64,000 nt of DNA, from the UHGV virus genome UHGV-0279745; one strand, 5' to 3'. The notes below the pieces were generated by a model. The model was not told the DNA's origin and did no database searches. It saw only the letters and a list, made by a program, of their open reading frames with translations. The translations under genes and the position numbers were made by a program. Positions within the stretch are counted from its first letter, which is position 1, and the number at the start of each line of letters is the position of its first letter. Below, in pieces: positions 1 through 56,999 of the stretch. The DNA is from a virus.

Positions 1-180
1 TAGGTTATCTGTTGCACCAGATGTTTCATGTGTCTTTTCAGTTGCTGAAGAAACAGATTGCACCACAGTAGGGTTAGCAAAGTTGGTTTCAATTGGTATC
101 ACTTTTACCCGATCTGTACCACGGGGTTTGTCTTCCGCGACGATACCAATTGAGAAAAAATCAACACTGGATTTCTCCAT
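1..180 (-). CDS. hypothetical protein, 5' part only (continues past window start)
   Basis: ATG at 180..178 on minus strand with AAGGA about 9 nt upstream; 60 codons open to the window edge (MEKSSVDFFSIGIV...). Confidence 0.35.
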   Translation of the reverse strand, partial: MEKSSVDFFSIGIVAEDKPRGTDRVKVIPIETNFANPTVVQSVSSATEKTHETSGATDNL

Positions 181-210
181 CGGGACGTTCCTTAGATCGG
201 AATTGATTTC

Positions 211-231
211 AGATATATATTACTTAAGTGA
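211..231 (+). promoter_or_regulatory. candidate early-type phage promoter element, copy 1 (agatatatattacttaagtga)
   Basis: One of three near-identical AT-rich motifs in the window; followed by a 10-bp-stem hairpin at 234..260. Confidence 0.4.
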
Positions 232-313
232 ATAGGGGCTGAACTGGCACTTCAGCCCCTACGGACACGTTTCATTCGAAACGGATTGATTAAACCATTT
301 GGGGAGACAGATC

Positions 314-457
314 ATGTCTACTAAAAAGAAAGAAAGTCTCAATGAGCTGCTCAAACGGCTTAAAGACTACACTCCATTTAGTACCTGTTATCGGAAGGTA
401 CTAAAATTTTACAGTCTGCCCCTTTATTCTGCTACTCGGGATACCGGTAGGGGGTAG
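314..457 (+). CDS. small lysine-rich hypothetical protein (47 aa)
   Basis: ATG with GGAGA about 6 nt upstream; not in ORF track (under 60 aa); lies in the long leader downstream of promoter copy 1. Confidence 0.25.
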   Translation: MSTKKKESLNELLKRLKDYTPFSTCYRKVLKFYSLPLYSATRDTGRG

Positions 458-601
458 GGGGCATTATGTATACGGATATAAATAGCGGAGGTATACGTAG
501 TATACCGACATACTCTTCCCAGAGGAACGTAGTGACTTCCTTATACCTCTTTTACAATCCATAATAATAGACTCCCCTTTATTGAGATTAGCGAGTAAAT
601 C

Positions 602-1336
602 ATGAGAGAATTATTAGACGATATCTTTACTAACACCAATTTAGAACTTTCTTCTACGGTGGTTAATGAACTAATAGGGCAATCCCAACCTGCTAAGTTA
701 GTCTCTGCTGAAACAATTAAACCCGAAGATTATCCAGACAGTGACGTTATCGACAGCATGGTTGACGAATACACGATAAGCAGTCACGCCAACCGGTTCT
801 TCTTTGTTCTTAATACCGAAACCAGCGTCATTTTATTCTATAAATTGATCAGTGACGCCGAACTTGAAGTCGTAGCGGAACATGTTCGCCTCATTGCCAG
901 CACGCCTACCGTTTCCGATGTTACGTTTATTGGAGGAAGCAGTATGCTGACGCTATACTCTTACTTCCCACTGTTTAGACATGGGGTAGGGTTAATCAAG
1001 CATGTAGAAAACCTTCCCACTGATGTAGAATTAACGTTGCTCGGCCGGGACATCAGTCTTTATCCCTTAAAAGATAACGGTAAGTTATACGGTTTACGTA
1101 TCTATGTTTCTTGGTTAGAGGGATACCGCGTTATTGAACTGATTGCATCAGGCTTAACAAAACAAATCCCAGAGGCGGAAACGATTTCTAAAGCCACTCA
1201 CCTAGTTGAGATTAATCCAGACGATCCGTTTTTACAGTATCACACAGAAAATTCCCTTCGTGGTGTCGCTGCCGTAAAAGGGTGGAGTTGTGCTGAGATT
1301 ACGAAGGGCTATCTGCTGCTAATTAAAACCGCGTAA
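602..1336 (+). CDS. hypothetical protein, tandem paralog family A member 1
   Basis: ORF track; shares N-terminal LDDIF motif with 3166 ORF and the C-terminal GW..G..LL motif of the family. Confidence 0.6.
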   Translation: MRELLDDIFTNTNLELSSTVVNELIGQSQPAKLVSAETIKPEDYPDSDVIDSMVDEYTISSHANRFFFVLNTETSVILFYKLISDAELEVVAEHVRLIASTPTVSDVTFIGGSSMLTLYSYFPLFRHGVGLIKHVENLPTDVELTLLGRDISLYPLKDNGKLYGLRIYVSWLEGYRVIELIASGLTKQIPEAETISKATHLVEINPDDPFLQYHTENSLRGVAAVKGWSCAEITKGYLLLIKTA

Positions 1337-1362
1337 GTAAAAACCTAAAAGGAGAATATATC

Positions 1363-1917
1363 ATGTATCTGACTAAACTGAAAAATGAAATTATCCAATC
1401 CCTTGAAAAAGGTGTAGGTGAACATTTCTTTAACTGTCCCTATACCGTACTGACCAATACCATTATTCAGCCAGGTGCGATGATAGTAGGGGTGAGTGTA
1501 CAAGCTGTGGAGGAAACCCCGCTGCGTCGCAACATCACGCGTAAAACGCATATCCCATTTAGAACGGGCTTTACAGATTACCTTCAGAGCTTACTGAAAG
1601 ATAGCGTTTGGAAAACAGGCAGCTTCTTCCACGATGGGAAGACTTCCACGCTGGTTTATAAAGAGAACACCAAGTATCTGGTTGATTTTCTCTTAGCGCG
1701 TCAATACGATTTCTTTCCATCCCCTTCTGGCACCACCCCTGATAATCCAGGTAAGTTATTAAACCAAGACGAAGCCGAAGCACTCTTTACAAGACTTCGG
1801 AATGAGCACTGCGATGTTGATGACTGGGAAACGTTGATCGCTGTCGCCAAAGTACATGGTTGGTATACTGTACGTAAAATCGGTCAGCAGTTGTTGTTCT
1901 TAGCTTACCCTGCTTAA
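1363..1917 (+). CDS. hypothetical protein, paralog family A member 2
   Basis: ORF track; strong RBS (ctaaaaggag); C-terminal HGWYTVRKIGQQLLFLA motif. Confidence 0.65.
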   Translation: MYLTKLKNEIIQSLEKGVGEHFFNCPYTVLTNTIIQPGAMIVGVSVQAVEETPLRRNITRKTHIPFRTGFTDYLQSLLKDSVWKTGSFFHDGKTSTLVYKENTKYLVDFLLARQYDFFPSPSGTTPDNPGKLLNQDEAEALFTRLRNEHCDVDDWETLIAVAKVHGWYTVRKIGQQLLFLAYPA

Positions 1918-1946
1918 GTAACGAAAAACCCTAAAGGAGAGTAAAA

Positions 1947-3098
1947 ATGCGAAATATTATTTCTAAGCCAGGACATGCCAAGATCCTAAAAGAACTGATG
2001 GACAGATGCTATAATCGGACTTGGTCACTACCAAGCTTAACCATCGAGTCTTCATTACAACGTGAGTTGTTTGGTTATAACTTGGGCTGTTGTGTACTTA
2101 GTGAATACAACCAGGTTATCGCGCCTGTCGATGTCTGTACTTCCGATGAAGAAATTGAAGGTTACCAGTTCACAGCTTACACAAATTGTGGACTAAATTA
2201 CCGTAAACTCGTTGTTAGGGAAATGAGTAGCAACCGGAAGATTATGTTTAAGGTCTTCCCAAGTGGTAAAGTCAGTAATTTATGTTTTCAGCTTGAGAAA
2301 GTGCCCTTTCACGGTGCAGCCATTTTAACTAAACCAGAACTCCTGTTATTAAGCGGGTTAATTGGCTTTGAAGTAAAAACCATCAAAGTTGAGCAGGAAC
2401 TTACACGAAACGATTTCGGCTCAACTTGGTACGAAAGTTTCTTCCGCTACGAAATGTTAAGTGATAAAGCTATCAAACTCACTTACCGTTCTACCGACGA
2501 CATCGTTTACCACATTTTAATTAGCGGCGAACCCCACCAGATTATTGAAGTCGGAGGAGAAAAATCCGTGCGTACCTTAAAAGATGAATTAACTGATTTT
2601 GTTAACAAAATTGATAACGTGGGTATCAGTGAATTATTGTTCCCGATTCAACATCCAGAGCTGCTTGACGAGAAATCTGAAAACGTGGTTATGGGTGTGC
2701 ATTTACTTCCTGACCATCTTGCTATCTACCGTACACTTTCTAAGAATCAACTTAAAGTGTGGTGCCTGTTAAAAGACCTTTTAACAGAGGCGGGGTGGTC
2801 GTGTAGTGTAGATGTTAACTGTGAAGGAGTTGCGTTCTTCATCACAATAGGCAATCGTAGTTTTTCTGTCGATTTACCTACTCGCAGCTATTACAATTTC
2901 TTCCCGACCGCAGAAGGACGTACTGAAAAAGAACCCGCATTACTGCTCAGTGCTGAGGAGTCCAATGCGTTAATGGCGAAACTAAAGGCGAAAGACGAGA
3001 AGCTGGATGCTTTACATCTACCTATAATCGGGAAAGACTACGGTTGGGCTGACGTGCAAAAATACGGCAGTCAGCTGTTGTTTGTTGCTGACCTTTAA
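1947..3098 (+). CDS. hypothetical protein, paralog family A member 3
   Basis: ORF track; RBS ctaaaggag; C-terminal GWADVQKYGSQLLFVA motif. Confidence 0.65.
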   Translation: MRNIISKPGHAKILKELMDRCYNRTWSLPSLTIESSLQRELFGYNLGCCVLSEYNQVIAPVDVCTSDEEIEGYQFTAYTNCGLNYRKLVVREMSSNRKIMFKVFPSGKVSNLCFQLEKVPFHGAAILTKPELLLLSGLIGFEVKTIKVEQELTRNDFGSTWYESFFRYEMLSDKAIKLTYRSTDDIVYHILISGEPHQIIEVGGEKSVRTLKDELTDFVNKIDNVGISELLFPIQHPELLDEKSENVVMGVHLLPDHLAIYRTLSKNQLKVWCLLKDLLTEAGWSCSVDVNCEGVAFFITIGNRSFSVDLPTRSYYNFFPTAEGRTEKEPALLLSAEESNALMAKLKAKDEKLDALHLPIIGKDYGWADVQKYGSQLLFVADL

Positions 3099-3123
3099 TA
3101 AGTGAAACTACACTTTCTCTAAC

Positions 3124-3150
3124 TGCCGCGCTTTAGTCGCGGCTTTTGTT
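3124..3150 (+). terminator. putative intrinsic terminator
   Basis: gccgcg-loop-cgcggc hairpin followed by ttttgtt. Confidence 0.5.
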
Positions 3151-3165
3151 AAGAAGGAAATAGAA

Positions 3166-3939
3166 ATGAAAGTCCATTTAGACGACATCTTTAAAACCGA
3201 ACCGTATATGATCGAAGGTTCGCTAACATCACTACTATTTGCCGATAGATTAGATCGTACGCTGCAATTACAATCGGTCGAATCTGCACCCGTTGATGAT
3301 GTAGAGCGTTACGAGCGCATCAATCATACGCGGGGTGAGTATCGTCGCTATAAGCCAAATTCACTAAGCATCAAGCTCTGGCAAGTGAGCACAGGTAAAG
3401 TATTAACTTATCGCGCTGTCGGTAGTTATTACATTCAACAAGCCAAAGAATGGCTAGAGAAAGTTAAAGAACTGAACTTCGATCTACTGAGCAAAAAACT
3501 GCGCGATCATAACGCCAGTTTGCCGATACGTAATTATTTCTCCACGATTGAAAATAGTCGATGCTTCGTTTCACGTGAAACCACGATATTACCTGGGGCT
3601 GATGTTCAGACGACACTAAAAGATGTGGTTGTGAAGAAAATCTTTCATGAATCTGAACACGTTGGATTTCGTATCTATTTAACGCACAAGAGACCATTTA
3701 CCGTGATTCACGTTGTTACCGCACCCGAAGGCTCAGCGGTTATTCGAGAACTTCCTGATGCTCGAGACCGTTGCCCTAATGAGCCGCTTTATTTAATGTC
3801 AGGAACAAAATCAACCGCGTTGATGTCCCGTTACAGCATGTTAGATGTTGTTGACGCTGCTATGAAACTGGGTTGGAAAGAAGTGCAGCAACATGGTAAA
3901 CAATTGCTGTTTATTGCCGATGTAAAACTTAATCAATAG
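3166..3939 (+). CDS. hypothetical protein, paralog family A member 4
   Basis: ORF track; N-terminal LDDIF and C-terminal LGWKEVQQHGKQLLFIA motifs. Confidence 0.65.
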   Translation: MKVHLDDIFKTEPYMIEGSLTSLLFADRLDRTLQLQSVESAPVDDVERYERINHTRGEYRRYKPNSLSIKLWQVSTGKVLTYRAVGSYYIQQAKEWLEKVKELNFDLLSKKLRDHNASLPIRNYFSTIENSRCFVSRETTILPGADVQTTLKDVVVKKIFHESEHVGFRIYLTHKRPFTVIHVVTAPEGSAVIRELPDARDRCPNEPLYLMSGTKSTALMSRYSMLDVVDAAMKLGWKEVQQHGKQLLFIADVKLNQ

Positions 3940-3951
3940 TGAGGTGGTACC

Positions 3952-4530
3952 GTGTACCGATTAATAGAAATGCGAAAAGACGTTTGGTTGGAAAACCTCG
4001 TCGATGGGGAGCTTGAGGGAATAGAGCTTTCCTTACCAGAAAGAGCGGACACGGTATTGGTCTTTCTGATAAAACAGGCAGCGAAGGAACCGGTAGGAAT
4101 CTTCAGCGTGGACTATAAAGACCCACGAGGGATTCATTTACGGAACATTTGCAGTGGTTTGGAAAGCTTACCGGCTAATCCGTTCTTAAACTACGCAAAA
4201 CGTAAACTCCAGCCAGGGCAACATCTCTGGGTAGTTCTAGCGCCTGATACACGCATTATACGTGACGACCTGACTGCGTTTGTCCAAGCAACGAAAGTCA
4301 GTTTGTACAATCCTAATGCGGATCGTACCGATATGCCGTTTACAATCACCTTAGAAGACGATGGAACGCAAGAGGGTATTGAGGCAATTACGGAATTAGT
4401 AAACTCTTATCCGGTAGCGTCTATTGAGTTAGAAAACCCAAACCGATTACCGTTGGGTGATTTACTCGAATGGATTGAGCTGAATACCGAGTTCCTCATT
4501 AACTCCCGGCAGTACCGGTTCGATGTATAA
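3952..4530 (+). CDS. hypothetical protein
   Basis: ORF track; GTG start with GAGGTGG RBS. Confidence 0.55.
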   Translation: MYRLIEMRKDVWLENLVDGELEGIELSLPERADTVLVFLIKQAAKEPVGIFSVDYKDPRGIHLRNICSGLESLPANPFLNYAKRKLQPGQHLWVVLAPDTRIIRDDLTAFVQATKVSLYNPNADRTDMPFTITLEDDGTQEGIEAITELVNSYPVASIELENPNRLPLGDLLEWIELNTEFLINSRQYRFDV

Positions 4531-4532
4531 CA

Positions 4533-4570
4533 TCGGTGGGGGTAAACCCCCCACCTTTTATTTTTTTGTT
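4533..4570 (+). terminator. intrinsic terminator
   Basis: ggtggggg-taaa-cccccacc hairpin followed by a long T-run. Confidence 0.7.
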
Positions 4571-4592
4571 CGTTAATATTAAAAATAATTTC

Positions 4593-4614
4593 AGATATAT
4601 ATTACCTAGGTGAG
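4593..4614 (+). promoter_or_regulatory. candidate early-type phage promoter element, copy 2 (agatatatattacctaggtgag)
   Basis: Contains TATATTAC; lies between a terminator and the next gene; followed by a gtgagag/ctctcac hairpin (4610..4631). Confidence 0.45.
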
Positions 4615-4660
4615 AGTACAAAAGCTCTCACTTAATAAAACCATTTTAGGAGTATTAAAG

Positions 4661-5032
4661 ATGAAAAACGAATTATTTAAAGACCCGTTTGTTGTATTAA
4701 TGATCGTTACTCGCGCTGCCACTAACCCAGAAAACCTGAAACGTTTACTTACTAACGAAGCATACCTTATCGAACAGCGTGACGCGCAGTTAGCCAAACC
4801 GCACGCTGAAGGCCAGGCGAAAGACCTTATCTCTATTTTCCGTAACGAAGAATGGCGTAAAAACAACGAGCTGTCCGACAACTTGACGGTTGCAATTGCA
4901 AAACTCTTGACACTGTTCAATCTCGACAAAGACATTAACCAAAGCCTTTCTACAGAAGAACGTCTGGAAATGATAAGAGGTATCGGAGATAGTTATACAC
5001 AGATTAAAGCATTCCCCAACACAGTTATTTAA
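4661..5032 (+). CDS. hypothetical early protein, dispersed paralog of the 62129 gene
   Basis: ATG at 4661 with extended RBS ttaggagtattaaag; N-terminus MKNELFKDPFVVLMI identical to the 62129 ORF; first 44 coding nt identical. Confidence 0.7.
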   Translation: MKNELFKDPFVVLMIVTRAATNPENLKRLLTNEAYLIEQRDAQLAKPHAEGQAKDLISIFRNEEWRKNNELSDNLTVAIAKLLTLFNLDKDINQSLSTEERLEMIRGIGDSYTQIKAFPNTVI

Positions 5033-5078
5033 TTTCATAATTTGTGGGAATTTCCCCATAACCCGAAGGAGCATTTCA

Positions 5079-5540
5079 ATGAAAACCTTTATCACATTCT
5101 TAATAACCATTTTAACTTTCGGCCTCAATAGCGCACACGCCGCTATCAACAGCTGGGAACAAATACAAAACCCTGGGCAGGCAGTTTACGAAATCGAGGA
5201 CACCGCCGGAAACGGACTGTCTATCAACTGTGACACAGAAACTGCGAATCGCAAATTTTACGGTCGCATGGTTTGGTATTACGGTGAACCCGTAGGTGCA
5301 ACTAACGCGGAAGATAACACGATGGATATTGTCGTAAACGGCAAAACCTATAACATCCCTACCGTGGACGGTAGTGACAAAGCAGAACACGCTTGGGTTG
5401 CTTTCGTTAAAGCTATCGGTAATGCCAAAACTTTCAGTGTGAGTATCAATGGTAACGATGCCGCTAACTTTACCGTAGAAGGCGAACGTCTGTCTGAAAC
5501 TTTCTTCCAAAACTGTGGACACACCCGTCCTAACAAATAA
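5079..5540 (+). CDS. small secreted protein (predicted signal peptide)
   Basis: ORF track; hydrophobic N-terminus ending AHA; Cys residues. Confidence 0.65.
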   Translation: MKTFITFLITILTFGLNSAHAAINSWEQIQNPGQAVYEIEDTAGNGLSINCDTETANRKFYGRMVWYYGEPVGATNAEDNTMDIVVNGKTYNIPTVDGSDKAEHAWVAFVKAIGNAKTFSVSINGNDAANFTVEGERLSETFFQNCGHTRPNK

Positions 5541-5568
5541 CTATTAGTCTTTTTTAGAGTGCGTGAAA

Positions 5569-5955
5569 ATGAATATCAGAACTATACTTTATACCATCAT
5601 TATTTTCTGTGCGGTCGGAATTACTGGCACTTATGCTTTCGGTGATTCAGATGTCCGTTATTACGAACCGGCTCCTGACTCACCGATTATCAACCCGGAT
5701 GAGACGCCTACGTTAATGCGCAGTTTCGGTAAACTACAAGTTTATCGTTTAGTGCGTGGTGAAACGTGTACGGGATTACTCATTGCTGACACCCGTGCAC
5801 AAGTCTACCAACGTCTGACGGATATCGCCTGCGAACAACCAAAAGTCATGTCAGTTAGTATCCATCCGCTATCAGTTGGTAACTATACCGCTGTGGACTT
5901 CTTTCACAACGCCGAATTAATCGGACGTGTTACCTTAAATCGCCCTGCTGAATAA
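5569..5955 (+). CDS. small exported or membrane protein
   Basis: ORF track (5563 GTG alternative start); hydrophobic N-terminal segment. Confidence 0.5.
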   Translation: MNIRTILYTIIIFCAVGITGTYAFGDSDVRYYEPAPDSPIINPDETPTLMRSFGKLQVYRLVRGETCTGLLIADTRAQVYQRLTDIACEQPKVMSVSIHPLSVGNYTAVDFFHNAELIGRVTLNRPAE

Positions 5956-5973
5956 TCTAAAGGAGTAGTTATA

Positions 5974-6459
5974 ATGAAACGTTTACACACATTGATGTTC
6001 TTTCTGGTTTTCTTGTTTATCGGTGTCACGCCAACTGTAGATGCGGCCTCCGTAGACGAATTGCTTACCTGCGATGGAAACGCTTGGGAAGGTCAGCCAA
6101 ATGCGTGCCCAAACATCAACGACTTGTACGATACCGATAAGTCGTTTAAAGCCGTTGTTGATAAAACATTAGACCCTGTGGGACTGGATGGTATGTTCGG
6201 CTCTAAAGGTTACATGGATGGCCCTGGTGGTAACATGTATCCGGTAAACATCAACAACAAAATCTGGATTGAAAGTGGCGGTTGTAAAGCTAACGCTTGT
6301 GGTTGGGAATACATCGTAACGCTATACAACCCACACACCAAGAAACTCGTCGGCTATTACTACAACATCGACCCCGGTTATCTGATTTGGTTCGGTGATA
6401 TCGGTGTTGCCGAATTCGCTTACCTGGTTAAGAAATACGTAGAACAATCTAAATACTAA
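5974..6459 (+). CDS. small secreted cysteine-containing protein
   Basis: ORF track; signal peptide ending VDA; strong RBS ctaaaggag; multiple Cys. Confidence 0.65.
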   Translation: MKRLHTLMFFLVFLFIGVTPTVDAASVDELLTCDGNAWEGQPNACPNINDLYDTDKSFKAVVDKTLDPVGLDGMFGSKGYMDGPGGNMYPVNINNKIWIESGGCKANACGWEYIVTLYNPHTKKLVGYYYNIDPGYLIWFGDIGVAEFAYLVKKYVEQSKY

Positions 6460-22730: not shown

Positions 22731-22745
22731 ATATTATCCAGGTGT
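22726..22745 (+). promoter_or_regulatory. candidate promoter-like element, variant class (agatagatattatccaggtg)
   Basis: AGATATTATC core upstream of the 22767 gene. Confidence 0.25.
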
Positions 22746-27777: not shown

Positions 27778-27875
27778 TCTAAAACCTCGGATTATAAGTC
27801 AGGGTTACATAGTAAAGTCTTTTTACAGTTCACCCAAACCTTATGACCGAGACTCTTCCATAAAGGTAAAGCTCG

Positions 27876-52832: not shown

Positions 52833-55800
52833 ATGCTGCTCATTAAACAGTTTAACCAACGCTTCTCGGTGCGTAAAACTGACGAGTTTGGTAATCCGAG
52901 GATTATCCCGCTCGAGAAGCTACAGATACCACGTGGTTCTGTACTCCATGTCATTGATCTCGACCAGGTGGTATTAGCGCCACCTGCAACACTCGAGATT
53001 ATTCAACCGTTAGAAAAACCTGCACAGGTTCGTCACCACTTTAAATTACCGGAAGACGGTATTAGCGGTCATCCGCGCAACAAACCTGTTCAGGGGCAAG
53101 AACGTGCTATCTTTGCTTACCACCGTGCAAACCGCCCGATGCGTCGTCTTACCTCAGACGATCTGGTTCGCAAAGACTTAAAAGTTCTCCTGGTCGAGAA
53201 CTACACACCGATGCTATCGCACTACTACTATCCTGACACCCAGTTAGCCTGGTACGATAGACTGCGTAACATCCAACTGTTGATGATTAACCAGTTCAAA
53301 TACGACACGCAAGAATACATGCGTCAGAACTATTTCGTTATTGAACTGGGTTCGACTCTACCTTCGTTCCAGAAGTTTCAAACAACCTATAACGACCGCG
53401 TTAAGAGCAAGATTGAGAAGTTCCAGGACTTCAACTTGCTGTGGTTATTGGAGTTGTTTGCTTGGGCTTATGGAAAACAATCCGATTCCCTATTCTCGGG
53501 AATGGATTTAACTCAGCTGTCACGAATGAACTTTATCTTCACCCACAACACGGGCTTTACGTCCATGAACATGGGTGTTGTAGAGAAAATGCGTAAGTCG
53601 TCCGGCGGTCGTTTAAGTGATGACCAAATGGCCAGGATGTTCTACCGTACGCTGGTGCGTGTAATGACACAAGCACCGTCTAACGCGTACGAAGCTGAAT
53701 TCCTAACGCCTGAAGGCGACGAGCGTGTTTTCCTTAAAGACGTCGAAGAAGAAACCGTTGATGTTGTCGACGATGACGATGTTGTTAATGACGCTGTGGT
53801 GGAATCCGATAACACCTTCGATGAAAAAGAAGACGTTGTTATTGAAGAACCGAAGGAAGACGTCAAACCGACGACCATCGTCGTCGAGAAAGTCATTCCA
53901 CATGACGAGATTATTAAACAGGAAGCACAACGCTTAGCTGAAGCGGGCCGCTTAAGTTCTAAAGCATATCAGTTCCTGTCAGAATCGTCTAAACGTTTCG
54001 TTCAGCTACCTAACCCGTATAACCCGAAAGAAACCTACGGGGAAGCACTGACTGTTCACGAGAAAGATATTGTCGTTAAAGCCGAACCGAAAAAAGTTCA
54101 GCGGCTTGTTACCGATGAAGGGTGGGCAGAGAACGTCACCGACCAGATGGTGAAACAATACAACCAGACCATGATGACCAAAGACGTACTGGCGGCGGTC
54201 GCCAGTTCACAACGTTTGGGTCTGGCGGTTCACAACCACACGGTGGAAAAAGAAGTTTCTGTTACAGGAACTATCGAGCACCACACTTTACGTGTTCAGC
54301 CAGTCGGTGGTGAGCCAACAACCGTTCGCTTCTCTATCCCAGGCTTGACCGAGGACGGTACTTGGGTCGCTAATGGTGTCGAATACACCATGCGTCGCCA
54401 ACGTGTGGACTTACCGATTCGTAAAGTTGCACCGGATACTGTCGCACTGACTACCGCTTACGGTAAAAACTTTGTCCGTCGTAGTGATAAGGTCGCGAAC
54501 GATTACGGTCGTTGGTTAACCAACGCGATTATCACACGCGCTGTTGACCCAACAAACACCGAAGTCACCGATGCACGTTTAGCAAATGTGTTCGATCCTA
54601 CGCAACATCTGCCTCGTCAGTATACGGAGATTGCACGCCGTATTGCCAGCTTTAATGCGAACGGCTATATGTGGAACTTCGACTACAAAGAAGCCGTTAA
54701 CTTCTTTAACGACGAGCAACTCAGAGACGCCGATGCTGCCAAACTTCTGCCAGTGGCGAAACGTCCGCGTAGTGAAACAATCCTGGCAATGGATGACAAA
54801 TCCATGCTTTACGGTGTGAACGGAAACAAAGTTGAACCGGTGGGGACTATCGCAGAGGTACTGGGCTTTAATAACCAGAAAGTGCCTCGCGAAATGACCG
54901 AGCTGTCTTTGATGGGTAAATCTTTGTCGCTTGGTTTTATCTTCTCGTTCTATCTTGGACTCCAGGGAATGTTGAAACATTTCGGTATCCAGTACGAGTT
55001 GGTTCCTACAGGACAGCGTGTTGATAAGAATGCCTACGACAGTATTATTCGACTACAAGACTGTAAACTTTTAGTTACTTGCGATAACGATCAGCAGAGG
55101 ATGATTCTGCATGGTTTGGATCGCTATCTCAAACACCTGGTTGCTTATACCGAATCAGAAGCAGACCGCGAAGACATTTACCTGAACTTATTACGTGAAG
55201 CAGATGGCCTAACGCCACGGTACATCAACGAGCTGAAACAGATGCGGTCCGCGTTTGTTGACGACATGCACGCACGTATCCTCAGGAAAATGGGTGAGCC
55301 GGAAACCTTTATTGGCTTGCTGGAACGTTCTAACGAACTGTTACAAACCGACCACTCTTTACCAGAGATTAACGGCGATGAAATGATGTTCTTAGGAAAT
55401 CAGAGGATTGCCTACCACATCTATACTGCGATGGTCAGAGCGATGCGTAACTACAATAACGCACCGGGCAGTAACCGTAAGTTCGAACTGACGCAAGATA
55501 TGGTTTGGGGTGCTATTAACTCCGACCCGTCGGTACTTTTGGCACCAGGCGCTAACCCTATCCAGTCAATTAAAGAAAAAGACGTTATTACGATGGGGGG
55601 TACAGGTGGTCGTAATCGTAAAACGATGGTCTACCACACACGTGAGTTCCAACCCAGTGATATCGGGATAGTCTCGGGTAACACCGTAGATAACGGCGAC
55701 GTAGGGATTACTGCTTTCGTCACCAATAACCCACGTTTTGACACCGTTGACGGTACTACGTTTAAGCGTGAAGAGAAAACCCCGAAACCGAGCGATACCC

Positions 55801-56999
55801 TTTCGTTTATTGACGGGTTAGTACCCGATACGTTAATGGACGATGCAAAACGTCAAAACTTCGTTGGGATTCAGTTAGGTTCTGCCACCAGTTGTAATGG
55901 GGCAACCACAACCCCGTATCGTACTGAACAGGAGAAATTCGTCGCTCACCGTACTTCGGTGAAACATGCACGCGTTATTGATAAAGCAGGTAAGATTACT
56001 GGTCTGTCGAAAGACCACATTGAAATTACGTACGAAGATGGAAGTAAAGAAGCCTTTCCTCTAGGGCGCTGGTTCGGCCCCCACGAAGGTACCTTCTATC
56101 CGCACACCTTGGTAACACGCTGGAAAGCCGGTGACAAGCTCCCGGCCGGAGCAGTGATTACGTACAACGAGCAACACTTTGAACCTGATATTTACGATCC
56201 TACTCAGGTTTCCTGGAAAAACGGGGTGCTGGCCACCGTTGCTTTATTAGAAGCTGAAGAAGTTATCGAAGACTCCAACGCAATTTCTGAACGGTTCGCG
56301 AAGAAAATGGTGGGGCAGGTAACAAAGCTGAAAGAAGTGACGATTAACAGCAACCAGATGCTTTTGGAAATCGTGAATGAGGGCGACCACGTAGACGTCG
56401 ATACAATCCTATGCACGTTTACTGACGACTTGACGGGCGATATGAGTGCCTTTAGTCAGGAAGCAGCCGCAACGTTGCAAAGTTTAAGTTCGTACGCACC
56501 TCGTGCAGGGGTACGTGGTATCGTGGATAAAATCGAAGTGGTGTATCACGGTGAAACCGAAGACATGACACCAAGCCTTGCTGAACTGGTGCGTAAATAC
56601 GACAGAATTCGTCGTAAAGCCGCACTGGCAGTCGGACGTGGTGATCCGGTTTCAGGCAGTGTAAACGGCGACTACCGTGTCGAAGGTGTACCCTTGGCCT
56701 TTAACTCACTTTGTGTTCGATTCTTTATTACACACGACGTTGAGATGGCCGCTGCGGATAAGATGGTTATTGCTAACCAGCTAAAAACCACCGTACAAGA
56801 AGTCATGTACGGCGACAACAAAACAGAGGATGGCGATGACCTGGACGTGTTGTTCGGTCGCGATTCCGTCGATGCGCGTATCGTAGGTTCAATCCAACGT
56901 ATCGGTACCGCGAATGCTGTAGGTGAACAAGCCGGGATTCTCATCGGGCGTATACTCGATGGGGAGGCTGTGCCTGATTTACCCGCGACACTTAAATAA
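52833..56999 (+). CDS. large hypothetical protein (1388 aa), possibly a further RNAP subunit or virion protein
   Basis: ORF track; immediately downstream of the beta-prime-like gene; no motif recognised with confidence. Confidence 0.7.
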   Translation: MLLIKQFNQRFSVRKTDEFGNPRIIPLEKLQIPRGSVLHVIDLDQVVLAPPATLEIIQPLEKPAQVRHHFKLPEDGISGHPRNKPVQGQERAIFAYHRANRPMRRLTSDDLVRKDLKVLLVENYTPMLSHYYYPDTQLAWYDRLRNIQLLMINQFKYDTQEYMRQNYFVIELGSTLPSFQKFQTTYNDRVKSKIEKFQDFNLLWLLELFAWAYGKQSDSLFSGMDLTQLSRMNFIFTHNTGFTSMNMGVVEKMRKSSGGRLSDDQMARMFYRTLVRVMTQAPSNAYEAEFLTPEGDERVFLKDVEEETVDVVDDDDVVNDAVVESDNTFDEKEDVVIEEPKEDVKPTTIVVEKVIPHDEIIKQEAQRLAEAGRLSSKAYQFLSESSKRFVQLPNPYNPKETYGEALTVHEKDIVVKAEPKKVQRLVTDEGWAENVTDQMVKQYNQTMMTKDVLAAVASSQRLGLAVHNHTVEKEVSVTGTIEHHTLRVQPVGGEPTTVRFSIPGLTEDGTWVANGVEYTMRRQRVDLPIRKVAPDTVALTTAYGKNFVRRSDKVANDYGRWLTNAIITRAVDPTNTEVTDARLANVFDPTQHLPRQYTEIARRIASFNANGYMWNFDYKEAVNFFNDEQLRDADAAKLLPVAKRPRSETILAMDDKSMLYGVNGNKVEPVGTIAEVLGFNNQKVPREMTELSLMGKSLSLGFIFSFYLGLQGMLKHFGIQYELVPTGQRVDKNAYDSIIRLQDCKLLVTCDNDQQRMILHGLDRYLKHLVAYTESEADREDIYLNLLREADGLTPRYINELKQMRSAFVDDMHARILRKMGEPETFIGLLERSNELLQTDHSLPEINGDEMMFLGNQRIAYHIYTAMVRAMRNYNNAPGSNRKFELTQDMVWGAINSDPSVLLAPGANPIQSIKEKDVITMGGTGGRNRKTMVYHTREFQPSDIGIVSGNTVDNGDVGITAFVTNNPRFDTVDGTTFKREEKTPKPSDTLSFIDGLVPDTLMDDAKRQNFVGIQLGSATSCNGATTTPYRTEQEKFVAHRTSVKHARVIDKAGKITGLSKDHIEITYEDGSKEAFPLGRWFGPHEGTFYPHTLVTRWKAGDKLPAGAVITYNEQHFEPDIYDPTQVSWKNGVLATVALLEAEEVIEDSNAISERFAKKMVGQVTKLKEVTINSNQMLLEIVNEGDHVDVDTILCTFTDDLTGDMSAFSQEAAATLQSLSSYAPRAGVRGIVDKIEVVYHGETEDMTPSLAELVRKYDRIRRKAALAVGRGDPVSGSVNGDYRVEGVPLAFNSLCVRFFITHDVEMAAADKMVIANQLKTTVQEVMYGDNKTEDGDDLDVLFGRDSVDARIVGSIQRIGTANAVGEQAGILIGRILDGEAVPDLPATLK

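Follow-up and report, generated by a model that had tools for sequence, protein, structure and literature searches.

In enterobacteria, a hairpin located 0-3 nt from the triphosphate 5′ end is the classical protection of mRNAs from 5′-end-dependent decay. Such 5′-terminal stem-loops reportedly stabilise E. coli mRNAs, as described in 1992 by Emory, Bouvet, and Belasco and by Bouvet and Belasco (both listed in PMC3997798), and the T7 gene 10 leader, with a stem-loop at +1, is a phage example of a 5′-terminal stabiliser. The early promoters of phiKZ-like jumbo phages belong to a class that is read by a virion-packaged multisubunit RNA polymerase (vRNAP) (PMC7598289). Their consensus sequences, predicted or mapped, are TATATTAC in phiKZ, ..TATATTACDWHDGTG in 201phi2-1, ..TTTYARRYAKATATTATYWWADTG in OBP, and ..TTTCARRYAKATATTATYWAAGTGWA in N1M2 (PMC7058600). 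The rule mapped for AR9 is AAATATATATTAT-(6N)-G+1, and the transcription start sites of phiKZ and phiR1-37 lie 6 nt after the consensus (PMC5312081). Here, we describe a promoter of this class and the strong stem-loop that follows it near one end of a 64,000-nt stretch of viral DNA, the whole of which is referred to as the window. Both the promoter class and this kind of 5′ RNA structure are already known, and the assignment is well supported and, in this respect, ordinary.

The window is, judging from the proteins it encodes, part of an uncultured phiKZ-like (Chimalliviridae) jumbo phage related to Erwinia phage phiEaH2 and Salmonella phage SPN3US. The ORF at 52833..56999 (1388 aa) showed 82% and 76% identity to the proteins annotated as RNA polymerase beta subunit in the Erwinia phages phiEaH2, Stratton, and Asesino and in the SPN3US group, respectively; a beta-like protein of a multisubunit phage RNA polymerase, either the virion or the non-virion enzyme, is encoded there. 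The minus-strand gene that the preliminary description had starting at 180 does start at that position, and its product was 73% identical to the baseplate assembly protein of phiEaH2 and Stratton by tblastn, with a homologue in SPN3US and a full-length homologue of 321 aa in contig L003 (related sequences are given here by L numbers). It is the matches of these two proteins to those of phiEaH2 and SPN3US on which the placement among phiKZ-like phages rests. No close relative was found among the deposited phages (INPHARED), the nearest matches being those at 73% (baseplate) and 82% (RNA polymerase), and the close relatives are known solely as metagenomic contigs. In tblastn searches against phages, neither the 244-aa gene at 602..1336 nor the 47-aa ORF at 314..457 gave a match. 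Megablast of positions 1..6000 against INPHARED matched only stretches of about 60 nt with promoter and terminator sequence around 4553..4628. This sole nucleotide-level match within 1..6000 falls in 4535..4628, shows 83-86% identity over about 60 nt in SPFM, SPLA, and Erwinia phages, and consists of the A/T-rich spacer after a terminator together with the second copy of the early promoter, which suggests that the intergenic signal is better conserved than the flanking genes.

The motif AGATATATATTACTTAAGTGA at 211..231, which had been described as the first copy of a promoter, was read directly in the sequence and is a repeated phage promoter of the early class. It contains the exact TATATTAC core at 216..223, corresponding to the conserved AT-rich core near -10, and is preceded by TTTCAG at 207..212, which provides the upstream T-rich TTTCA block present in the consensus sequences of OBP, N1M2, and 201phi2-1. 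The complete site, 207..230 (TTTCAGATATATATTACTTAAGTG), had no mismatch to a 24-nt IUPAC consensus (TTTCARRYAKATATTAYYWARGTG) that we adapted from the published ones, relaxing one position from T to Y to admit the phiKZ-type C. All seven TATATTAC sites in the first 50 kb of phiKZ carry G at the predicted +1, and here G230 lies 6 nt after the core; application of the rule of the other phages (consensus, 6 nt, G+1) would place the transcription start at G230. Allowing up to two mismatches, the 21-mer was found three times in the window, at 211, 4593, and 62056, always on the plus strand, against 0.00 expected matches, the latter two copies having two mismatches each. A scan with a position weight matrix (PWM) made from 29 related promoters gave strong sites with +1 at 4612 (57 bits), 62075 (53 bits), and 230 (51 bits) and weaker variants with +1 at 22744 and 31860. 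All five copies, three strong and two weak, are intergenic, lie on the plus strand, and precede genes. We regard it as very probable that 207..230 is an early, vRNAP-dependent promoter of the phiKZ-like jumbo-phage class. Sites found in a sigma-70 promoter scan were no commoner than in shuffled sequences, and a sigma-70 promoter was rejected. The exact 21-nt motif is also present in unrelated marine phages, within a conserved coding sequence (..SPYFEDIYYVGEVKEIPINELV..) represented by many short IMG/VR contigs (L016-L135), and will therefore give false positives in pattern-based promoter searches.

The features of the locus are listed below. The promoter is the first plus-strand signal after the divergent late gene, and the unit that it would open runs to the terminators at 3125..3143 and 4535..4555, in keeping with the earlier view that an early transcription unit starts here. 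The unit comprises five genes, all of unknown function, three of which are clear paralogues: the plus-strand genes beginning at 1363, 1947, and 3166 have a common C-terminal domain (BLASTP E values from 1e-4 to 2e-13), as expected for the cluster of paralogues noted before. With this site, the beginning of an early transcription unit is pinned down for an uncultured giant phage, and a testable +1 (G230) is available. The preliminary interpretation was largely right except in assuming a simple 420-bp leader: the figure of about 421 bp corresponds to the intergenic span between 180 and 602, the predicted leader from G230 to the ATG at 602 is 372 nt long, and it holds a small ORF preceded by a Shine-Dalgarno sequence and a structured non-coding element at about 437..548. 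The two terminators downstream have a U-tract, unlike the hairpin of copy 1. The loop CTTTAGT of the terminator or attenuator at 3125..3143 (+) also occurs in L001 (~2425-2450) and L002 (~2405-2435), with stems that differ in a compensating manner (GCCGCG/CGCGGC in the window, CTGTG/CACAG in phiEaH2, and AACTGTT/AACAGTT in SPN3US), which suggests that CTTTAGT is a conserved terminator-loop motif.

Features of the promoter-proximal region and of the predicted early unit, in window coordinates
Feature	Position	Strand	Remarks
Divergent late structural gene, 5′ end	1..180	-	Start codon 178..180; baseplate assembly protein homologue, phiKZ gp164 family
Predicted early (virion RNA polymerase) promoter	207..230	+	TTTCA block 207..211, TATATTAC core 216..223, six bases, predicted +1 G230
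Putative 5′-terminal stem-loop	233..261	+	11-bp GC-rich stem, 7-nt loop; +4..+32 of the predicted transcript
Second small hairpin	268..283	+	CGTTTC-ATTC-GAAACG
Shine-Dalgarno GGGGAG and small ORF	SD 301..306; ORF 314..457	+	47 aa
Third hairpin	380..402	+	AGTACCT-GTTATCGGA-AGGTACT; loop in L014 is the reverse complement, TCCGATAAC
Older conserved structured element	437..548	+	G-box, P1, CGGA, P2, GACATACTC, CU-rich tract
G-box GGGGGTAGGGGG	450..461	+	Part of the 437..548 element
Variable hairpin P1	462..485	+	Followed by CGGA 486..489
Hairpin P2	490..506	+	GGTATAC-GTA-GTATACC
GACATACTC	507..515	+	Followed by CU-rich tract to about 548
First full-length gene of the predicted early unit	602..1336	+	244 aa, function unknown; 79% identity to homologue in IMG/VR contig L003
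Weaker internal terminator	3125..3143	+
Strong intrinsic terminator closing the unit	4535..4555	+	Directly before promoter copy 2 (+1 = 4612)

The stem-loop downstream of the promoter had been read as a 10-bp stem at 234..260, with the arms aggggctgaa (234..243) and ttcagcccct (251..260) and the loop ctggcac (244..250). This reading was exact, and T233-A261 adds an 11th pair. RNA folding of 228..270 yielded -20.5 kcal/mol, compared with -10.1±2.4 kcal/mol for dinucleotide shuffles (z -4.3; none of 200 shuffles was as good), so that the fold-energy check proposed earlier came out in favour of the structure; with DNA parameters, the value was -11.5, and the minus-strand stem was equally good. 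The hairpin was kept in both the minimum free energy (MFE) and the centroid folds of the whole leader (230..620, z -4.5). If transcription starts at G230, the RNA begins with GAA, leaving three unpaired nucleotides before a stem at +4, that is, a stable hairpin within about 0-4 nt of the 5′ end. No T-run follows the stem on either strand, the next sequences being ACGGACAC (+) and ATTCACTT (-), and a terminator scan of 1..1500 returned no site; an intrinsic terminator is ruled out by these results, as had been expected. RNase III needs about two helical turns (around 20 bp) of duplex, and an RNase III processing site was rejected because the duplex of 11-12 bp falls short of this length. Searching 1..5200 with Rfam 15 produced no covariance-model match at E≤1 except a spurious rli47 at 4528..4584, and no copy of 232..436 was found elsewhere in the window.

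To see the hairpin in the context of its clade, exact AGATATATNTTACNTANGTGA matches were collected from IMG/VR. About two thirds of the 21-mer matches in IMG/VR were coding sequence of marine phages (..FEDIYYVGEVK..), which was removed and reused as a control, and 24 non-redundant promoters were left besides copy 1. A stem of 4-9 bp started at the predicted +1 in 19 of the 24, and z was below 0 in 22, with a mean of -2.45; the 63 marine coding sequences with the same 21-mer, which served as the negative control, had a mean z of -0.16. At the exact-motif promoters, the plus strand folded better than the minus strand (Wilcoxon p = 0.007) because of G·U pairs at the base of the stem, which points to a function of these hairpins as plus-strand RNA. 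A PWM survey of 471 kb yielded 42 distinct promoter-like sites, for which the median MFE of +1..+30 was -6.5 kcal/mol and z was below -1.64 at 69%. The five homologues of copy 1 were the five strongest hairpins among these 42 sites, and the earlier statement that copy 1 carries the strongest downstream hairpin thus holds in the window and across the clade sites surveyed. Overall, about 70% of the predicted early promoters in the enterobacterial clade are followed by a significant hairpin, which starts exactly at +1 at about half of all sites and about 80% of the exact-motif sites. The early promoters of phiKZ showed no general +1 hairpin (mean z -0.2), which indicates that the feature is not essential to the promoter class and is specific to the clade. 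Our literature search found no earlier description of +1 hairpins after these promoters, although this does not prove that there is none. The coupling of hairpin and promoter in Erwinia/Salmonella-type chimalliviruses, unlike phiKZ, merits a second look by specialists.

Ordinary early leaders in the clade are about 55-60 nt long and have a weak AU-rich stem and a conserved ribosome-binding region. Their typical +1 hairpin has the form GAGAGTTA..TAACTCTT, with G·U at the base, and is followed by the conserved leader AATCGACTATTAATCTAAAGGAGTATTACCATG; the predicted promoters surveyed for such hairpins include those with +1 at 4612 and 62075 in the window and 40 further sites in L003-L281. Whereas the sister promoters mostly have no unpaired nucleotide before the stem, copy 1 has three. 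RppH, as given for the Bacillus enzyme, needs at least two unpaired 5′ nucleotides (PMC3997798), and the three nucleotides before the copy-1 stem may still admit it.

We propose that an injected multisubunit virion RNA polymerase would read the promoter at 207..230, starting at G230, and that the nascent RNA would consist of GAA followed by the 11-bp GC-rich stem-loop at +4..+32. The stem-loop would conceal the 5′ terminus of the first early mRNA from the decay machinery that acts on 5′ ends (RppH and then RNase E in enterobacterial hosts), and this protection would lengthen the life of an mRNA with an unusually long, poorly translated 5′ region, on which the small ORF, the structured element, and the 4.3-kb cluster of paralogous early genes would follow in this order. 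Copy 1 would then be the extreme case of a clade-wide habit of hairpin-led early transcripts. Taken as a whole, an early promoter with a 5′-terminal protective stem-loop on the first early mRNA is an interpretation that we favour slightly over its negation. That the hairpin matters as plus-strand RNA is likely, and the chances that its job is mRNA stabilisation are about even. Since the copy-1 leader of 372 nt is mostly untranslated and highly structured, a stronger cap at this copy is plausible. If the hairpins do stabilise mRNA, they would be useful parts for engineering these phages and would offer a clue to the survival of early messages in the period preceding formation of the phage nucleus. 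It is conceivable, though quite improbable, that the +1 hairpin is an obligatory tag of virion-polymerase transcripts in the enterobacterial branch of the nucleus-forming jumbo phages, reinforced at copy 1 and also contacting the G-box through its CCCCUAC arm; such a tag could serve exit from the early-infection vesicle, preferential ribosome loading, or immunity to phage or host RNase.

At 19 of the 24 promoters, the stem begins precisely at the predicted +1, which would equally suit a structure tightly coupled to initiation. As the first RNA structure leaving the exit channel of the vRNAP, the hairpin might act co-transcriptionally, in promoter escape, against backtracking or R-loops, or in promoter-proximal pausing or attenuation. 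Many of the ordinary clade hairpins are followed by TTT(T)A, and premature termination in 201phi2-1 yields short RNAs derived from the 5′-UTR (PMC11512511), both of which fit such a role. However, copy 1 has no T-run at all, the phiKZ promoters of the same class work without hairpins, and the spread of stem strengths in the clade, from -2.7 to -20 kcal/mol, fits a passive cap better than a tuned pause. We consider the co-transcriptional role unlikely.

The locus was also compared among relatives. The promoter and the hairpin occur at the same site in about 8-10 related metagenomic contigs: L003/L004, L005, L006, L007, and L014 from IMG/VR, where they lie between the baseplate gene and the paralogue cluster, and L184, L189, L217, and L222 from metagenomes, where a scan with TTACTTANGTGANTAGG was poorly specific (120 rows, 5 of them homologues). 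The stem arms are AGGGGCTGAA/TTCAGCCCCT in the window, L007, and L217; AGGGACTGAA/TTCAGTCCCT in L004, L014, and L184; AGGAGCTGAA/TTCAGCTCCT in L005 and L222; and AGGGGTTGAA/TTCAACCCCT in L006. All 11 core pairs were paired in each of the six aligned sequences, and compensatory double changes (G-C to A-U or C-G to U-A) were present at three stem pairs; no compensatory changes appeared when the registers were slid by 1-3 columns as a control. The flanks of the hairpin vary little across the homologues, and the loops vary or flip. Together, the three compensatory pairs, the full core pairing, and the changing loops indicate that structure rather than sequence is maintained. The single exception to full pairing is L189, in which a C·A mismatch on the plus strand would be G·U on the minus strand; in L007 and L217, the outer pair is G·U, in favour of the plus strand, and these two hints cancel each other out. 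The compensatory changes all run from one Watson-Crick pair to another and do not, therefore, identify the strand.

A minus-strand role was also considered: the structure might be an element in the long 5′-UTR of the late baseplate mRNA, or might insulate divergent early and late promoters that overlap. The minus-strand stem is equally perfect, and the L189 mismatch becomes a pair only on that strand. In L005, L006, and L007, a late minus-strand mRNA would cross the hairpin, because a late-promoter-like sequence, GTAAATTTTAAGTAATACTATGA, is located about 230 nt before the baseplate gene. Moreover, the reverse complement of the early core (AAGTAATAT) is the late-promoter core of the relatives L010, L012, and L013 (AAGTAATATGA in L013), so that the early promoter may have arisen on the back of the late one, or may overlap it. 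Nevertheless, in neither the window nor L014 does the minus strand contain TATG between 181 and 508, and in more distant relatives the baseplate gene is expressed although such a hairpin is missing. Hairpins are, furthermore, usual at early promoters that have no divergent gene, with plus-strand G·U pairs there. A minus-strand role is quite unlikely in our judgement. As separate observations on late signals, the late promoter of phiKZ is TATG with G as +1, and a late-promoter-like box, GTAAAAA(A)G-N5-8-TA(A/G)TATG(A), occurs in the window at 27808..27825 (-). A box of the same GTAAAAA(A)G..TATG type lies about 22-27 nt before the baseplate start in L008-L015 and about 230 nt before it in L005-L007, and the TATG before the baseplate gene has been lost in the window and L014.

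The loops provide information on how such stems may change. CTGGCAC in the window (244..250) and GTACCAG in L014 are reverse complements but for one base, as are CTCGCAC in L007 and GTGCGAA in L217, and the loop of the 380..402 hairpin is exactly reverse-complemented in L014. The window and L014, which are otherwise nearly identical here, thus differ by two loop flips (244..250 and 387..395) inside 170 bp. Flips between such close relatives show that template switching or recombination between arms operates here, and they point to such events being frequent at short inverted repeats in these genomes. Because template switching can make paired changes without selection, the covariation of the stem is supportive, not decisive. 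The flips would suit a functionless or selfish palindrome that is kept perfect by copying one arm from the other and was brought in with a promoter-bearing insertion of about 240 bp, and the block 181..~425 is indeed absent from phiEaH2, SPN3US, and others. However, the hairpin and the promoter were kept in all 9-10 contigs while the adjoining small ORF was lost three times, and unrelated hairpins occupy this position at independent early promoters much more frequently than in shuffles and controls. Such a palindrome is very unlikely to account for the hairpin.

The alignment identified 181..~425 as an insertion that separates the start of the baseplate gene from a box common to all the relatives, which reads TTTTTTACG in the relatives and AAATTTTACAG in the window. 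The insertion contains a new baseplate 5′ region, the early promoter, its hairpin, the second hairpin, the small ORF, and the third hairpin. In phiEaH2, SPN3US, ChrisDB, Wellington, Derbicus, and others, the intergenic region adjoining the baseplate gene has no early promoter. The hairpin at 268..283 recurs in L005, L006, L007, and L014 with changes confined to the loop and no covariation, and is deleted in L004/L184. The small ORF was predicted by the gene caller on a source-like contig, and its N-terminal ~22 aa are homologous to an ORF of 25 aa in relatives, which is of the type MSTEKKSGLDEVIELFKRYNPAIPR in L005, L007, L189, and L222 and of the type MFAEQKDGIEEVVRLFRHYSPYLPR in L006 and L217; the two types are 48% identical and agree in length and in their stop. 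In the window the ORF is longer (47 aa), L014 carries a frameshift in it, and L004/L184 have lost it by deletion. The ORF at 314..457 is probably a real but dispensable micro-gene.

The structured element at 437..548 has the consensus G-box GGGGGTA(A)GGGGG, P1, CGGA, P2, GAC(A/T)TCCTT, and a CU-rich tract. It is non-coding, occurs once per genome, and adjoins the baseplate gene in every phage of a large clade (Erskinevirus, Seoulvirus, Wellington, Derbicus, and others); it was located at ~2830-2945 in L001, at ~2830-2930 in L002, and in L008-L015, L257, L258, L279, and L280. In all 14 sequences compared, P2 is paired perfectly from end to end, and eight versions of the stem sequence occur among them. 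Its covariation was counted over eight alignable sequences, because MAFFT misaligned 4 of 12 P2 sequences; double changes were present at six of the seven pairs, and the score of 0.714, against 0.188 in shuffles, was reached by none of 500. P1 folds better on the plus strand in three lineages. The element had no Rfam match, and blastn against phages gave no match. In L010, L012, and L013, it is not followed by a canonical terminator, and a stand-alone sRNA is therefore not supported. The occurrence of the element in distant phages that have no promoter at this site suggests that it predates the promoter. The element merits a second look by specialists, and the locus offers a lesson for annotation, since both a micro-ORF and an unrelated structured element that is conserved lie hidden in the long "leader".

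The sequence TAGGGG occurs at 233..238, in the 5′ arm of the promoter hairpin, and at 448..453 and 455..460, and CCCCTTTATT occurs twice, at 419..428 and 575..584, flanking the structured element. Alternative long-range pairings in the leader are possible, and the global fold still keeps the local hairpin. That the hairpin is a site for a phage or host RNA-binding regulator or a DNA-binding dimer, or forms a long-range RNA switch together with the downstream G-box, is highly improbable: TAGGGG in its 5′ arm is the repeat unit of the G-box, its 3′ arm and flank, CCCCTACGG (256..264), are complementary to CCGGTAGGGG (444..453), and the whole leader is unusually structured (z -4.5), but the symmetric double changes in both arms are unlike a sequence-specific dimer site, the loop sequence flips freely, the local hairpin persists in the global fold, and a G-box change in L004 is unmatched in L014, which has the same stem.

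With an early promoter followed by a putatively protective stem-loop as the preferred reading, the locus resembles several described systems. It shares with the phiKZ TATATTAC promoters, the AR9 AAATATATATTAT-(6N)-G promoters, and those of 201phi2-1, OBP, and N1M2 the AT-rich core, the TTTCA block, and the 6-nt spacing to G and, as in phiKZ-like phages generally, there are multiple co-oriented copies before early operons and multisubunit phage RNA polymerases in the genome. Copy 1 differs from the phiKZ-like early promoters in that its divergent late neighbour leaves it without the usual terminator and A-rich tract upstream, and in having a hairpin much stronger than that at any other copy. 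Like intrinsic terminators and attenuators, the hairpin is a GC-rich intergenic stem-loop, but it has no U-tract on either strand. The promoters of coliphage N4 likewise involve an injected virion RNA polymerase, early genes, and a hairpin near the start; in N4, however, the hairpins are situated before +1, their loops are 3 nt long, and they serve as the recognition element, whereas the hairpin here lies downstream of a linear consensus and has a 7-nt loop. An N4-type hairpin promoter was rejected on account of this downstream position and because the hairpin is weak or absent at several copies and in phiKZ. The leaders of E. coli ompA and papA are similar in that a stable hairpin lies a few nucleotides from the 5′ end of a long mRNA and in that structure, not sequence, is conserved. 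Compared with these leaders and that of T7, the stem-loop described here would be transcribed by a phage multisubunit polymerase and would be preceded by three unpaired nucleotides.
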